DNA of 48,284 nt from an uncultured delta proteobacterium (GCA_963745035.1 CAVUVW010000001.1:1-48284); one strand, 5' to 3'; counted from the first letter of the stretch, positions 10,641 to 42,109 are shown. Numbers and translations are program-made. Notes: a model not told the origin generated them from the letters alone.

Positions 10641-10916
10641 TTGCAATCAGAGTTCGCGGGGACATCCCTGGAGTTTCGCCCGTCCATATTCACTACGCCT
10701 GCCTCGATAGCCCTGCGCATCGTTTTGGCTTGTTTTATCTTTGAAACGCAATTATCGGCCGACGTCCTACTATTCGGACGCAATGAATCGGTGGTGTAGC
10801 AATATTGCTGTCCTAGCCTCTCCCTTCCGCCGGTGGCACGCTTGCTGCGCACCTTCTCGTCAATTCGGCGGGATCCAGGCACGATCCGACCGCCGCCTCT
10901 AGTCCGTTGTCGGTTT

Positions 10917-11432
10917 ATGGTTCATGCCAACTTGTTAAGAATCATTGGGCAGGCGTTGGAGCTAACCAATGCTACAGTTTTCGAATTGGAAAAGCATGGG
11001 CAGTACTATGTCACCTGGAGCACTTCATTGGATGCCGACAAATGGATTTCATACTACGGTCTCGCCAAAAACTCTTCAGATGCAGGCGGCCGGGAGTCGC
11101 AGGCTCATCGCTCGTTGTGTTTCAAATGGTCAGACATATCTCGCCTCGATGGTCAGGCTAACAAACGCAGACGTCATCAAGCGTCGTCGTACGTGCAAAA
11201 CTCGAATAAGCTGCCCCAGCTTTTGCGTACCGTGGGTGACTATCTCGATCGCAACGCGATCAGTGCGTTCCATCTTTCCTGGACTCCGGAGCTAGTCTAT
11301 ATCGTGACGCTGCCTGTGAACGACTTGGTAGTTGAACGATTTCAACTCACAGCCGAGAAACTTCAACAATTGTCTTTGCACACACGATTGAGACGGTCCA
11401 GGCCTCATCTTTTGCCGTTCCACGTGAAATAA
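10917..11432 (+). CDS. Hypothetical protein, paralogue of 21515..22192 (two internal LRxxGxxLE/D repeats)
   Basis: LRIIGQALE..FELE / LRTVGDYLD aligns with LRALGQALE..FDLE / LRGAGSYLD. Confidence 0.7.
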   Translation: MVHANLLRIIGQALELTNATVFELEKHGQYYVTWSTSLDADKWISYYGLAKNSSDAGGRESQAHRSLCFKWSDISRLDGQANKRRRHQASSYVQNSNKLPQLLRTVGDYLDRNAISAFHLSWTPELVYIVTLPVNDLVVERFQLTAEKLQQLSLHTRLRRSRPHLLPFHVK

Positions 11433-14807: not shown

Positions 14808-14873
14808 TTTGGGCTACGTGACCGCAAGCGGTCGCCATATCGTGCGCGGTAATTTTCAATGAGGGATGAAGCT

Positions 14874-19472
<4,599 letters not shown>

Positions 19473-19617
19473 CAGGCATTTCGAACCGCAGTTTTGAATT
19501 CGTTGTTTGAATCGAGCGCGCCCGCATCGATTCAAAATTTAAAGCCTGACGATCTTCCTATGTCGCGCGCGTCGACAGCGCGCGGTGTCGGTATCATTTT
19601 GAGGAGTAGAGTAAGCG

Positions 19618-21102
19618 ATGGGCAAACCAACCGGCTTCATGGAATATGAGCGAGAGCTGCCGAGCGATCGCTCGCCGCTCGAGCGCATCAAGGACTGGAA
19701 CGAGTTTCATGAGCATTTCGCCGATGAGAAATTGCGCCGGCAGGGCGCACGCTGCATGGACTGCGGCATTCCGTTCTGTCACACCGGCCAACTGATCAGC
19801 GGCATGGCATCGGGCTGCCCGGTGAATAATCTGATCCCGGAGTGGAACGACCTCATCTATCGCGGTCTCTGGCAGGAAGCGCTCCAGCGCTTGCACAAGA
19901 CCAACAATTTTCCTGAATTCACCGGCCGCGTCTGCCCGGCGCCCTGCGAAGGCTCTTGTGTGCTCGGTTTAAATGAGCTGCCGGTGACGATCAAGAACAT
20001 CGAGGCCGCGATTATCGACAACGGTTTTGCCCAGGGATGGGTGACCGCTGAAACTCCGGAGAAGCGGACCGGAAAAAAGGTCGCGGTGATCGGTTCCGGG
20101 CCCGCCGGCCTGGCGTGCGCCGCGCAACTCAATCGCGCCGGCCATCTCGTCACCGTTTATGAGCGCGACGACCGCATCGGCGGGCTGCTCATGTACGGCA
20201 TCCCCAACATGAAGCTCGACAAGAAGATCGTCCAGCGGCGCGTCGATTTGATGGCCGAGGAGGGCGTCAAGTTTATCACCGGCGCTCACATCGGCGTCGA
20301 CGTGTCGGCGGTGGAACTGAAAAGCCAATTCGATGCCGTCGTTGTCTGTACCGGCGCGACCAAAGCGCGCGATCTGGCGATTCCGGGCCGAGAGTTCAAG
20401 GGAATCTATATGGCGATGGAATTTCTCCGCGCCAATACCAAGAGCTTGCTCGACTCGTCCCACAAAGACGGCGCTTTCATCTCCGCCAAAGACAAGAACG
20501 TGATTGTCATCGGCGGCGGCGACACCGGCACGGACTGCGTCGGCACGGCGATGCGCCATGGCTGCAAAAGTCTGACCCAGTTGGAAATCCTGCCGCGCCC
20601 GCCCGACACCAGGCAGCCCGATAATCCGTGGCCCGAATGGCCCAAAGTCTACAAGCTGGATTACGGCCAGGAAGAAGCCGCCGCCCGCTTCGGCGCGGAC
20701 CCGCGCATCTATCTTACCACCGGCGAGAAATTCGTCGGTGACGATGCCGGCAACGTCAAGGAGCTGCACATCTACGACGTCGAGTGGGCCAAGAACGAAC
20801 AGGGCGCTTTTATTCCCAAGCGTATGCCAGGCTCCGAGAAAATTCTGAAAGCCGATCTGGTGCTGCTGGCGATGGGTTTTTTGGGGCCGGAAGACGCGGT
20901 TCTCACCCAACTGGGAGTCGAGCGCGATCCGCGCTCCAACGCCAAGGCAGAATATGGCCAGTTCGCCGCCAACGTTCCGGGCATCTTCGCCGCCGGCGAC
21001 TGCCGGCGCGGGCAGAGCCTAGTGGTGTGGGCGATCAATGAGGGGCGCGGCGCCGCCAGGGAATGTGACCGCTTTCTCATGGGCACAACCAACCTGCCGT
21101 AA
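19618..21102 (+). CDS. gltD: Glutamate synthase small subunit
   Basis: [52 protein letters not shown]. Confidence 0.98.
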
Positions 21103-21306
21103 ATCGCCTCGACACGCGCCTGGCACGATGCCGCATCAGCCCGTCCGCCACGTATGGACAGCCATTGCGACTTGCGTCGAAACCCTCGTACAGGCTCGCA
21201 TTTCGCTGCCTTTTCTGACTCGCCACCTTGTCACCGCTGACAGCTCGAAGACAAAATTGCGACGATATTCGTTGAATATCTTGGAAGATTTTACCCATCC
21301 GCGACG

Positions 21307-21321
21307 TGGCATTGTCGTTGC
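21307..21321 (+). promoter_or_regulatory. sigma54 promoter TGGCAT-TGTCG-TTGC
   Basis: Near-consensus -24/-12 box upstream of the riboswitch leader. Confidence 0.7.
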
Positions 21322-21375
21322 TCTTCACCGTGTCAGCAGAGTGGAGCCAAACTCCGAAAGGCTAAACTCTTTGTT

Positions 21376-21485
21376 GCTCGCCTGAAAAGCCGAACTCGTC
21401 GCGAGGCGAGGGCGGAAAGCCACGGATCACGAAGAGCATCCCGCATCAGCTTCGCTACCGTGATCGCCGAGCTGCCGAAAGCGAA
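21376..21485 (+). ncRNA. Cyclic-di-GMP-I (GEMM) class riboswitch
   Basis: AAAG-CC-GAA-CTCGTC-GCGA-GGCGAG-GG-C-GG-AAAGCCACGG-(long P3)-GCCGAGCTGCCGA: P2 with GNRA tetraloop, conserved AAAGCC junction and 3' GCTGCCGA, as in deltaproteobacterial GEMM-I RNAs. Confidence 0.85.
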
Positions 21486-21514
21486 CGATTCATATAGGCG
21501 GTTTGGAGTCAGAT

Positions 21515-22192
21515 ATGAAGCAAAACCTCGCCAAAAATAAGATTGTTGTCGTTGCAGACAACAGCTCTCCTGCGCAACCCGACGAGACGAACGTAGAGGA
21601 TTCCCGCAATTTTGCTCGCGAACTGCGGGCCCTCGGCCAAGCGCTCGAAAAGTTCAGGTTTTCCGCCTTCGACTTGGAACTCATAAGCGGAACCTACTTG
21701 GTCAAGGGCACGGCGACGTCCACCGACAATATAAAGTTTTCGTTTTCGCGATTTGTGGGCGAGTTGCTGCGCGGCTCCGCGGCTCGCACAACCATGACTT
21801 GCACGGGCAGCCAAATCGATCTGCGATTTTCGCCCGAGGAGATCGAGCGCTTCGATATGCGGGGTAAAATCAAGCGCCAGGACTCCGGTAAGATGCCCGA
21901 TCCTTACAGCATCTCCCAGATTCTCCGCGGTGCGGGCTCGTACTTGGACAATCGCGACGGAACGCAATTGGTGGGAGTTTCGCTGAAGGGGAAATGGGTC
22001 ACCGTGAACTACCAGACCGTTGAAGGACGGCTGGAGCGAGCCCAGCAGGATCTCGAATACTTTTACGATTATTGGGTAAAGATGTATTTAAAACGCAGCA
22101 ACCGCGTAAAGCCTCCGCTCCCCAGCGATCCAACGGTACTTGTAACCTGGCAAGGTATCCAACGGGCGCATGGAGTTTCCAACGCGGGCTAA
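21515..22192 (+). CDS. Conserved hypothetical protein with internal duplication, downstream of the riboswitch
   Basis: RBS GGAG, ATG at 21515; paralogue at 10917. Confidence 0.8.
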   Translation: MKQNLAKNKIVVVADNSSPAQPDETNVEDSRNFARELRALGQALEKFRFSAFDLELISGTYLVKGTATSTDNIKFSFSRFVGELLRGSAARTTMTCTGSQIDLRFSPEEIERFDMRGKIKRQDSGKMPDPYSISQILRGAGSYLDNRDGTQLVGVSLKGKWVTVNYQTVEGRLERAQQDLEYFYDYWVKMYLKRSNRVKPPLPSDPTVLVTWQGIQRAHGVSNAG

Positions 22193-39180: not shown

Positions 39181-40722
39181 ATGAAACTCGGAACAAAGCT
39201 CATTCTTAGTTTGGTGGCGACATCGATCATCACCATGCTCTGCCACGGCTATCTGAGCATACAGCAGGACAGAGAAAACATTTTGAGAGAGATGCGCGTC
39301 GGCATGATCGGCCTCGGCCGTACCCTCCAAGCCGCACTGCGATTCATTTACGGCGATGCGCGCGACATCAAGGCAACTCAAAGCTTGATCGACGGGGTGG
39401 GACGGACCGGCAACATCCATGGCGTAGTCGTCTACGACCAAGCAGCCACACGAGTGGTGACCTCGGCGTCCTTGGCCGACAGCCCGGATTATCCCAATCT
39501 CGATGCCAGGCCGGTATTGAGCATCGACCCGCGAGAAGCGCTGCGCAGCGGTAATCTCGTCGAGGGTTACATCGAACACCCGGCGCATCCCGTCTACTAT
39601 CGGATCGAGCCGATCATCGACAGTCAAAACCAAGTCGTAGGCGCTGTTGTTCTTGGACGGCGCGGCTTGGGTTTTACCCAGGTCCTGGACGCCAGACGCA
39701 ATCGAATCGTCTTGACCACCTCGATTCTGATCGCCGTTCTTTCGCTATTTATTCTCTTGCTAGTGCGGCGCAACGTTTCCCGTCCGATCCAGGAACTGAT
39801 TCACCGCATTCGGAGCATCGGAGAAGGGCAATGGGAGAAGCGCATCGATGTTCGCGGCAACAATGAAATCAGCTCGCTGGCGCGCGAATTCAATCGCATG
39901 TGCGGCAGGCTGGAGGATATCTATGGCAGGCTCGTGAAGGAACAGCAGGACAGGCTGGGCCTGGAGCGCAACCTGCGCCAATCGGACAAACTGGCTTCGG
40001 TTGGCCAACTCGCGGCGGGGCTGGCGCACGAGATCGGCACCCCGCTCAATATCATCGGCGGGCGCGCCGAGTTTCTTCTGCGCCGACCGCGCAGCGATCA
40101 AGAGATCGGCCAGGGCCTGCAAATCATCCGCTCACAAATCGACCGCATCACCGGCATTGTCCGCCAGCTTCTGGAATTTTCCCGGCGCCGGGAACCGGCG
40201 TTTCGAACCCTCGAGCTGCTGCCATTACTGCAGAAGGTGACGATGCTTCTGGAACACAAGATCGTCGATAAAGGAGTGAACGTAAGGCTGGATCTTCCCA
40301 AAACTTTGCCGGCGATCCAGGCCGACCCCGATCAGTTGCAGCAGGTGTTCATCAACCTCTTTCTCAATTCTCTCCATGCTTTGCAGCGCGGCGGAACGAT
40401 TACGGTCAGATCCGCGACGGGTCGTAGTGACCGTGGAAACGGCGCCGCGCCCGCGGCGGGCGACAAGGTCGCCATTGAATTCGAAGACAACGGCGCCGGT
40501 ATTGCCGCGGAGCATCTCGGCCAAGTTTTCGATCCGTTTTTCACGACCAAGGATATCGGCGAGGGAACCGGGCTCGGTCTATCAGTGAGTTACGGGATTA
40601 TCAAAGATCACGGCGGGGAAATCCGCGTCGAAAGCCAGGAGGGCAGATTTACTCGGTTCACCATTGTTCTCCCCGCTGAAACTCATGTCGCCTATCCGGC
40701 AATGAGATCCGCCGCCGTTTAG
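39181..40722 (+). CDS. HAMP-domain sensor histidine kinase (NtrB/AtoS-like)
   Basis: Two TM segments, HAMP, LAHEIGTPLN, NLFLNS, DNGAGI, FFTTK, GTGLGL. Confidence 0.95.
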   Translation: MKLGTKLILSLVATSIITMLCHGYLSIQQDRENILREMRVGMIGLGRTLQAALRFIYGDARDIKATQSLIDGVGRTGNIHGVVVYDQAATRVVTSASLADSPDYPNLDARPVLSIDPREALRSGNLVEGYIEHPAHPVYYRIEPIIDSQNQVVGAVVLGRRGLGFTQVLDARRNRIVLTTSILIAVLSLFILLLVRRNVSRPIQELIHRIRSIGEGQWEKRIDVRGNNEISSLAREFNRMCGRLEDIYGRLVKEQQDRLGLERNLRQSDKLASVGQLAAGLAHEIGTPLNIIGGRAEFLLRRPRSDQEIGQGLQIIRSQIDRITGIVRQLLEFSRRREPAFRTLELLPLLQKVTMLLEHKIVDKGVNVRLDLPKTLPAIQADPDQLQQVFINLFLNSLHALQRGGTITVRSATGRSDRGNGAAPAAGDKVAIEFEDNGAGIAAEHLGQVFDPFFTTKDIGEGTGLGLSVSYGIIKDHGGEIRVESQEGRFTRFTIVLPAETHVAYPAMRSAAV

Positions 40723-40729
40723 CAATCTC

Positions 40730-42109
40730 ATGATTCCAGAACCGAACGCCAGACCGGCGCATATTTTGATCGTCGAGGACGATCGGGCCATGTGCCAGCT
40801 GCTTTTCGATCTGCTACGCGAGGACGGGTACGCGGTCGATGTGGCCCACGACGGCGAATCGGCGATTGAGAAGCACAGAACCGCGCGGTACGAGTTGACG
40901 ATCACCGATCTCATGATGCCCAAGATGAAGGGCATCGAGCTGATTCAGAGACTGCGTGAGGTCGACGGCGCCGCGCCCGTGCTGCTAATCACCGCATTCG
41001 GCACCATCGAGAGCGCTGTCGATGCCATGCGCGCGGGAGCATTCCACTACGTGACCAAACCCTTTCGCAACGATGAGATTTTGATCCAGGTGAAACGCGC
41101 GCTCGAACAACAACGACTCCATAAGGAACTCAAGCGTTTGCGCACCGAAGTCCAGGCGCGCGAACGTTTTCAGAACATTATCGGACAAAGCCAAACGATG
41201 CAGAAAGTGTTCGAGACCATCGCTCAAATCAGCGATCTGCCGGCCAATTTGTTGATCGAAGGGGAGAGCGGAACCGGTAAGGAGATCATCGCTCGGGCGA
41301 TTCATTTCAACAGCGCGCGGGCGACCGGCCCGTTCGTTGCGGTCAATTGCGCCGCGATACCGGAGAATCTTTTGGAGAGTGAATTGTTCGGTTATGTGCG
41401 CGGTGCTTTTACCGACGCCAGAAAGGACCGCCGGGGTCTGTTTCAAGAGGCCAGCGGCGGAATCTTGTTTCTGGACGAAATCAGTGAAATGCCGCTGGGC
41501 CTGCAGGCGAAGCTGCTGCGTGTCTTGGAAGACAAAGAAGTGCGCCCGTTGGGCGCGAATCAAGCGGAAAAGGTTGATGCCCGCGTGGTCTCGGCGAGCA
41601 ATCAACGACTCGAAGACTGCGTGCGCGCGGGCAGGTTCCGCCAGGACTTGTTCTATCGCCTAAATGTCATTCGCATCGAGCTTCCGCCATTGCGTGAAAG
41701 GAGCGAAGACATTCCTCTGCTGGTGAATCATTTCATCGAGAAGTTCACGCCTGATGCAAAGCGTCCCGTGGAAGGGATTCATCCGGAGGCATTGGCTGCC
41801 CTAAAGAGCCACGACTGGCCGGGGAACATCCGCGAGCTTGAGCATGTTATCGAACGCGCGGTACTCCTCGGCAAAGGACCGAACATTACGCCGGAGGATT
41901 TGCCGGGTCACTTGATGACACGCGGCGAAGGTACTTTTGTCGTCGCGCAGGCTCTCGCCAAGCAGCTCACGCTGCACGACCTCGAGCGTGAGTACATCGC
42001 CAAAGTGTTGGAACGAACCCACGGCAATAAAACCGAAGCCGCAAGAATTCTAGGAGTCGATCGGACGACGCTTTATCGCAAGCTGGAAGAATACAAGTTC
42101 AAGGAATGA
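40730..42109 (+). CDS. sigma54-dependent response regulator (AtoC/ZraR/NtrC family)
   Basis: REC domain, [31 protein letters not shown], Fis-type HTH. Confidence 0.96.

Follow-up and report, generated by a model that had tools for sequence, protein, structure and literature searches.

A c-di-GMP-I riboswitch behind a predicted sigma-54 promoter precedes an uncharacterised protein of the Binatia

A 48,284-nucleotide (nt) stretch of DNA (GCA_963745035.1, CAVUVW010000001.1:1-48284; the window) from a soil-dwelling member of the Binatia, an uncultured bacterial group, contains, upstream of an open reading frame (ORF) for an uncharacterised 225-residue protein that we call P0001, a riboswitch aptamer of cyclic di-guanosine monophosphate class I (c-di-GMP-I, or GEMM-I) and, before it, a -24/-12 element of the sigma-54 type. 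The reading that we favour, with moderate confidence, is that a sigma-54 promoter and a c-di-GMP-I leader of ordinary ligand specificity, acting as a translational ON switch, together control a protein restricted to the Binatia. The unit would be monocistronic, with the promoter and the riboswitch leader as its two layers of control. Transcription would start at the sigma-54 (RpoN) promoter and would, for that reason, need an enhancer-binding activator. Without ligand, the 3' strand of the aptamer (CCGAGCUGCC) would pair with a downstream stretch (GGCGGUUUGG) and cover part of the Shine-Dalgarno (SD) sequence; with c-di-GMP bound, the basal part of helix P3, the ligand-contacting C92 and helix P1 would be held within the aptamer, leaving the ribosome site free. 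The four parts named in a preliminary description of this DNA (promoter, 5' hairpin, aptamer and ORF) are all present, at or within a few bases of where they had been placed. The features are as follows, with the evidence for each in brackets; minimum free energy is abbreviated MFE.

21307..21322, + strand: sigma-54 type -24/-12 element, TGGCAT-N5-TTGCT (sequence, consensus score, conservation)
21333, + strand: predicted transcription start (from the -24/-12 geometry)
21334..21376, + strand: 5'-terminal leader hairpin, AGAGU...ACUCU enclosing AGCC...GGCU (MFE, shuffles)
21378..21484, + strand: c-di-GMP-I (GEMM-I) aptamer (covariance models, consensus structure)
21467..21476, + strand: proposed switching strand, CCGAGCUGCC, comprising the basal P3 3' strand, J3/1 and C92 (MFE fold, orthologue pairing)
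21497..21506, + strand: proposed partner, GGCGGUUUGG, overlapping the first two SD bases (MFE fold, orthologue pairing)
21505..21508, + strand: SD sequence GGAG, 6 nt 5' of the ATG (sequence; GGAG or GGGG kept in the leader alignment)
21515..22192, + strand: ORF of 225 residues (P0001), ATG at 21515 (sequence, AlphaFold model, hhalign)

The aptamer is supported by covariance models as well as by comparison with orthologous leaders. In a cmscan search of the whole window, the sole Rfam match at gathering score is to RF03167, the c-di-GMP-I-GGC model, with a borderline 59.9 bits (cut-off 59, expect value (E) 9e-12) at 21380-21480; RF01051, the c-di-GMP-I model, gives 50.3 bits (cut-off 35) at 21379-21479. 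The GEMM-I fold proposed in the preliminary description, which had named such a scan as one way to check it, is thereby confirmed. P1 is formed by UCGC (21378-81) and GCGA (21481-84), and in P2 C21-C22 (21390-91) are joined to G45-G46 (21414-15). In the cmscan alignment the three ligand-contacting positions are G20 (21389, just 5' of P2), A47 (21416, just 3' of P2) and C92 (21475). RNAalifold, run on 16 non-redundant leaders, recovers P1, P2 and P3, with compensatory double changes at seven of the 23 consensus pairs; P1 and the outer pairs of P2 never vary and are uninformative on covariation. The G at 21389 and the A at 21416 are invariant in all 16 leaders.

The riboswitch accompanies the gene in a substantial part of its orthologues. 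Usable upstream DNA was available for 28 loci whose protein is at least 61% identical to P0001. Immediately before the gene, 16 of them (L015; L058, L059, L061-L069, L072, L073 and L076; L078) carry a GEMM-I match that reaches the gathering score; several of the 28 are near-identical, so that the number of independent loci is smaller. The aptamer is also found with two more distant relatives in other genera of the taxonomic family (L030, 52% identity; L032, 42%), and a third (L031, 41%) has no GEMM-I match upstream. The riboswitch is confined to this orthologous subgroup of the P0001 family; none of 27 paralogue-type loci (at most 37% identity) has a GEMM-I match. Counting against a fixed association are the 12 orthologous loci that lack a match at gathering score: the L016 aptamer scores 25.3 bits, those of L060, L071 and L074/75 are altered or decayed in the alignment, and L070, L077/82/83 and L079-81 have different upstream regions. 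The expectation that homologues in related genomes keep the riboswitch is thus borne out at 16 of 28 orthologous loci and fails at the other 12 and at all paralogue-type loci.

Two of these upstream regions deserve separate mention. In the L060 leader (L060:800-994), whose scores do not reach the Rfam cut-offs, a matched deletion on the two sides has removed the outer pairs of P2 (GAAAAGCUCUCC ... GGGGAGCGGAAAGCC); this shortened P2 could be a real variant or an assembly error. At L079:2352-3657, and also at L080 and L081, the orthologues are about 61% identical and lack a GEMM-I match, and a sigma-54-like box (TGGCACAGTCTATGC) lies about 650 nt upstream. A c-di-GMP-II-like aptamer lies some 26 nt past the first base of that box; it scores 46-47 bits with RF01786 (E about 2e-7, below the cut-off of 53.5) and, in L079, 40.9 bits with RF03169 (cut-off 40). 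In L079 the aptamer is followed by a 74-residue ORF with a G-QGLVEYT motif and then, 220 nt later, by the P0001 orthologue. The small protein may resemble an Flp pilin, but its match to Pfam Flp_Fap is weak (E 0.11, 12.7 bits with a cut-off of 32.2); a similar small ORF stands 5' of the orthologue in L074. In the L079 clade, one gene may have had its riboswitch class swapped.

The -24/-12 element reads TGGCAT TGTCG TTGCT, with GG at 21308-09 and GC at 21320-21, and agrees with TGGCAC-N5-TTGCW at 10 of 11 positions. Of 21 aligned upstream regions, 17 retain it, including some in which the aptamer looks degraded (L016, L060, L071), and the near-consensus box reported earlier is in this sense real. 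Promoters of this type start transcription some 12-13 nt beyond the -12 GC, which would put the start near 21333. The genome has a single rpoN, judged by one Sigma54_DBD match, and matches Sigma54_activat at 35 places, of which about 26 are full length. The window itself encodes one NtrC-type sigma-54 activator (receiver-AAA-HTH_8, 40730-42106), next to a histidine kinase (HAMP-HisKA-HATPase); the pair occupies 39181-42106 (+ strand), 18 kb downstream of the promoter at 21307.

How the aptamer might control expression can be judged from the rest of the leader. Between 21000 and 22500 the + strand has no terminator-like site, and the gap from P1 of the aptamer to the ATG measures just 30 nt in a leader of about 180 nt; control is therefore most likely exerted over translation. 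The preliminary description had suggested that CGCCU in P1 (21379-83) pairs alternatively with AGGCG (21496-21500), but AGGCG occurs in just one of 14 leaders, that of the window, and GGCG in five more, and we have abandoned this pairing. In the unconstrained MFE fold of the leader, it is 21467-21476 that pairs with 21497-21506. Across 14 non-redundant leaders, 86.5% of the cells of this 9-pair switching helix can pair, compared with 36-51% when the partner is slid by one to three columns. The strongest duplex that the final 16 nt of P3/J3-1 can form with the downstream leader has a mean z of -2.26 against shuffled downstream sequence, overlaps the SD in 11 of the 14 leaders and, in seven of them, has an energy that at most 5% of shuffles reach. 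When the aptamer fold is enforced, the SD is predicted to be unpaired with a higher probability in 16 of 17 leaders, including all 14 non-redundant ones, and with a lower one in the 5'-truncated L061.

Several results weigh against this switching helix. Since the strand on the aptamer side never varies, none of its pairs has changed on both sides in a compensatory way, and RNAalifold does not predict it on the expression platform, giving just a 3-pair hairpin. The duplex is not above chance in L015, L063, L066, L078, L067, L073 and L058, and the helix is weak (z -0.4 to +0.5) in the L015/L063/L066 clade and in L078. For L061, L063 and L066 the enforced "aptamer alone" fold is not the GEMM fold. 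P3 forms first during transcription, and kinetic control could give another outcome. Taking both sides together, a translational ON switch seems to us about evenly balanced between true and false. The foremost alternative, which we regard as distinctly less probable than our overall model yet worth serious consideration, is that the aptamer is real but works as an OFF switch, or through Rho-dependent termination or messenger RNA decay rather than release of the SD. The missing covariation, the absence of the helix from the RNAalifold prediction and the seven leaders in which shuffled sequence does as well speak in its favour, as does the fact that aptamers for cyclic dinucleotides can be much alike and yet include ON as well as OFF switches (available text of PMC9262584). 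The Vc2 riboswitch of Vibrio cholerae is described as an off-switch in the available text of bioRxiv 10.1101/617340, the reverse of our prediction for the window. The short, terminator-free platform, the complementary stretch on the SD in most leaders and the rise in SD accessibility on aptamer folding all argue the other way.

Control of RNA stability would also suit the conserved hairpin at the 5' end of the leader. The preliminary description had noted an extra hairpin here, and it is found at 21334-21376, within the first 45 nt, with an MFE of -14.1 kcal/mol and a z of -2.8 (300 shuffles). Most orthologues have a hairpin at the same place with a different sequence (mean z -1.4; z below -1 in 11 of 16), with arms such as AGAGU/ACUCU, GGAGUC/GACUCC, GGGGU/ACCCC and CGGGU/ACCCG, and RNAalifold on the gappy alignment did not recover it. 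Our guess is that it serves as a 5'-terminal stabiliser. A long-range pairing of its 3' arm with the SD was considered and dropped, since the SD variants (GGAGUC, GGAGGC, GGGGUC) do not, by eye, co-vary with the arm.

We next turn to the ligand, for which the model of a c-di-GMP-I leader of ordinary specificity rests on the contact positions. In the available text of PMC6140456, the two guanines of the ligand pair with G20 and with C92, one each, riboswitches for 3',3'-cyclic GMP-AMP (cGAMP) carry A20, and G20 in Vc2 discriminates strongly against cGAMP (dissociation constant 10 uM versus picomolar). The preliminary description had read the base just 5' of P2 as G and predicted c-di-GMP from it; the G at 21389 supports that reading, and the ligand is probably c-di-GMP. 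The organism has the corresponding signalling machinery, with GGDEF matches at 10 places, six of them full length. Judged by its sequence, the aptamer has the ordinary c-di-GMP triad G20/A47/C92 and is neither of the GGC variant (G47) nor of the cGAMP type (A20). Membership of the GGC variant was suggested by the model score itself, and the window RNA shares A19 and the 3' end GCUGCCGAAAG with RF03167, which is its best-scoring model and gives 61-67 bits for the orthologues. "GGC" appears, from the model consensus, to denote positions 20, 47 and 92; that consensus has a G directly 3' of P2 (GCGAAgCc), where the window RNA and all its orthologues have A (GGAAAGCC), and we rejected this assignment for want of the apparently defining G47. 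The Rfam GGC model hence also catches RNAs with an ordinary binding triad, which matters for automatic annotation. The GEMM-Ib cGAMP riboswitches of Geobacter (e.g. Gs1761) have the same fold but an A at position 20 according to the same text (PMC6140456), and this identity was likewise rejected, given the invariant G.

The window aptamer does depart from the canonical type. Of the seven GEMM-I matches in the genome, five are canonical (AAGGGCAAACC ... GGGACGCAAAGCC), and a variant (AAAAGCCGAAC ... GGGCGGAAAGCC) is shared by the window copy and one other, at C13:647272-647372. Compared with RF01051 members such as Vc2, the window RNA is alike in its three-helix aptamer, the G20/A47/C92 triad and the GNRA loop on P2, and differs in a flipped P2 closing pair (C21-G46 instead of G21-C46), A19 instead of G, G23 and G43 instead of A, and a GAAA insert in the 3' side of P1; its leader adds the extra 5' hairpin and the sigma-54 promoter. 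The C13 copy (- strand), the only other aptamer of this sub-variant in the genome, precedes a 601-residue oxidoreductase dependent on flavin adenine dinucleotide, which an N-terminal motif, read by eye, likens to glycerol-3-phosphate dehydrogenase. A point against ordinary specificity is the flipped pair, which adjoins the ligand and may bear on specificity. It is one of the grounds for supposing that the aptamer, as a member of a variant subgroup, senses another cyclic dinucleotide (3',3'-cGAMP, or both), together with the G at positions 23 and 43 and the higher score of RF03167 over RF01051 for the window RNA, its orthologues and the C13 copy. An alternative register, pairing GCC with GGC and again read by eye, would place an A at position 20; we rejected it, as the window aptamer aligns collinearly and without gaps to the five canonical aptamers of the same genome, and it is the reason why this alternative keeps a small probability. 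With both covariance models placing G20, A47 and C92, and with the strength of the discrimination by G20 in Vc2, we judge it improbable.

The sigma-54 promoter of our model draws support from the other riboswitches of the organism and its relatives. TGGYAY-N5-TTGC occurs at 133 sites in the genome (both strands, 7.4 Mb), where about 51 would be expected from composition, and stands on the same strand 32-77 nt upstream of all seven GEMM-I matches. Under a scoring rule that was derived in advance from the textbook consensus, and that demands GG, GC and agreement at 9 or more of the 11 positions, boxes arise at 8.4e-5 per strand position in the genome, or about 0.011 per 130-nt window. A box of this score precedes six of the seven GEMM-I riboswitches in the source genome, the seventh scoring 8, as well as 10 of 18 riboswitches in five other genomes of the class and 13 of 22 in 19 further published genomes of the family. 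For the family alone, 26 of 39 class-I riboswitches have such a box (31 of 39 at a score of at least 8), with about 0.4 expected by chance; the 39 are a sample of 58 matches listed, the remainder being given without a locus. Related genomes are not independent, and we therefore give no P-value for the coupling, but the excess over chance is plain.

The coupling extends to the second class of c-di-GMP riboswitch. The genome has two c-di-GMP-II matches, C14:160435-160519 (- strand, 55 bits) and C26:91560-91644 (+ strand, 49.1 bits), the first preceded by TGGCAT-N5-ATGC at a distance of 44 nt and the second by TGGTAC-N5-TTGC at 25 nt, so that sigma-54 boxes lie upstream of all nine c-di-GMP riboswitch matches (seven of class I, two of class II). 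The P0001 family as a whole is not sigma-54 linked, because a box scoring at least 9 is found upstream of only two of 16 paralogues in the source genome, in one case at the start of the ORF. Among the eight non-redundant sigma-54/riboswitch promoters of the genome, which we searched for activator sites, the 9-mer CAAATTTGC (at most one mismatch, either strand) occurs within 245 nt upstream in six, and shuffled sets reach at most 4-5 in 10 runs; the signal is weak.

Against an active promoter at 21307, an assembled metatranscriptome contig (21206-21356) spans both the promoter and the predicted start, and a weak sigma-70-like site (9/12) lies at 21228-21257. These two observations, with a gltD gene or an ORF of matching size 5' of the gene at all six loci inspected, are what favours the view that the -24/-12 match is not a working promoter, that transcripts of the leader stem from gltD read-through or a sigma-70 promoter, and that the motif is kept for another reason. 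The contig is consistent with read-through from gltD or with DNA in the library, which RNA libraries can hold. The recurrence of the motif, at nine of nine riboswitches in the genome and two thirds of those sampled in the family, with spacings that range over 25-118 nt and beside genes that are unrelated, makes this view unlikely in our estimation, and the box at 21307 is probably an active sigma-54 promoter.

The genes behind the other riboswitches of the genome are of several kinds. The GEMM-I copies at C7:30341, C25:106723 and C13:650683 are followed by large secreted proteins with a fibronectin-III-like start (LSWxDNSxNEDGFxIER), and the copy at C12:11681 by a shorter frame of 101 residues with a signal-peptide-like start. 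The C12:11681 and C12:74681 leaders are near-duplicates, and the latter precedes a disrupted reading frame. At C14:160435-160519 the 3' end of the class-II aptamer is overlapped by a hairpin and a U8 run, a platform of the terminator type, and a 489-residue secreted repeat protein follows. GEMM riboswitches before secreted fibronectin-III-like proteins are also described for Geobacter (available text of PMC2996986), and in the same text, the G. bemidjiensis genome paper, riboswitch and sigma-54 terms fall in unrelated passages. No description of a coupling between sigma-54 promoters and c-di-GMP riboswitches was found in literature listings; subscription papers and supplements lay outside that search, and absence is unproven. 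Sigma-54 activators that respond to c-di-GMP include FleQ, VpsR and FlrA. These, too, couple sigma-54 promoters to c-di-GMP, but through an activator protein that binds c-di-GMP, whereas in the window the ligand would be read in cis by the messenger RNA leader 3' of the promoter.

P0001 itself remains without a recognised domain. The 225-residue ORF noted earlier (21515-22192) has no Pfam or NCBIfam family; 48 family members gave nothing beyond single stray matches in profile libraries, five members had no match in PADLOC or PHROGs, and the best E in a PDB profile search with P0001 was 0.84. Fused or longer forms were not found at E <= 0.001, which is weak evidence by the tool's own account. 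An AlphaFold model built on 48 sequences (predicted local distance difference test (pLDDT) 80.5, predicted template modelling score (pTM) 0.70; residues 1-30 and about 70-99 of low confidence) has a disordered N-terminus and a core at about 30-198 with two repeats of a helix and a beta-hairpin, the confident core running helix, hairpin, strand, helix, helix, three strands, helix. Foldseek gave no match at E <= 0.001, its PDB rows being only PCNA-like with a template modelling score of about 0.2, which we take as noise; the best wide VIA-align match (Z 5.7, root-mean-square deviation 6.5 over 109 residues) is taken as noise too, with unrelated models usually reaching Z 7-8, and the ESM Atlas had no usable match. 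With no convincing fold match, the earlier view of an uncharacterised protein is upheld. The further claim of an internal duplication is borne out in part: two modules, each LRxxGxxL[ED] followed by a beta hairpin (28-64 and 128-165), align in hhalign with a probability of 82% (P 1e-5, 37 columns), a weak repeat. L37, R38, G41 and R138 are invariant in the family alignment. The symmetric arginine-bearing helices hint, and no more than hint, at a nucleotide or nucleic-acid ligand. By eye, the sequence shows neither a signal peptide nor a hydrophobic segment, and the product is predicted to be cytoplasmic. An effector role in biofilm formation or motility, as proposed in the preliminary description, may be conjectured.

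Relatives of P0001 number 307 at E <= 0.001 in a word-indexed search and 411 representative clusters in an exhaustive one, and the organism names among them are "Candidatus Binatia bacterium" and one "Deltaproteobacteria bacterium" metagenome-assembled genome only. A P0001 query found matches in 11 of 13 other genomes of one taxonomic family and in none of 187 genomes from 19 other families of the class. The protein family is expanded in the source genome (7.4 Mb in 28 contigs, 92.6% complete), with 17 matches, and one subfamily, including C13:1465337, has an N-terminal four-cysteine ribbon. A distant paralogue (E 0.008, residues 34-147) lies in the window 10 kb upstream, at 10833-11429 (+ strand), with an TGGCACGCTTGCTGCG motif at the start of its frame.

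In the window the gene stands 3' of gltB-gltD (14859-21102) and 5' of a polysaccharide deacetylase and an ABC transporter. Among the six loci examined for this neighbourhood (L063, L078, L066, L072, L015 and L016), a Pfam-confirmed gltD-like gene precedes the orthologue in L063 and L078, and ORFs of matching size (494-516 residues) precede it in the other four; the genes 3' of the orthologue vary among loci. Four soil metatranscriptome runs, each from a different study, contain sequences that are at least 99% identical to parts of the ORF, and the segment from the aptamer to the SD (21361-21510) is covered in one run. These data are contigs, which give no strand, start or level, and parts that are not covered are uninformative.

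Taken on its own, the riboswitch is an ordinary member of a well-known class, and the new aspects are the C21-G46 sub-variant and the coupling to sigma-54. A wider proposal, which is tentative and which we think rather unlikely to hold in all its parts at once, is that in this Binatia family riboswitches of both classes regularly follow sigma-54 promoters, the activator signal and c-di-GMP being the two inputs of an AND gate by which a dedicated regulon is defined; that the riboswitch-linked P0001 member is a new cytoplasmic c-di-GMP output protein, whose two symmetric LRxxG helices, with their invariant arginines, might bind a nucleotide or nucleic acid; and that in one clade a class-II aptamer has taken over the control of the same gene. 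If the coupling is real, it would offer a small system, amenable to testing, in which signals that act on transcription and on RNA are joined at one gene, and a route to predicting the c-di-GMP regulon in an uncultured phylum. For a protein family of more than 400 sequence clusters with neither a family nor a fold match, riboswitch control would provide a first handle on when the protein is made.

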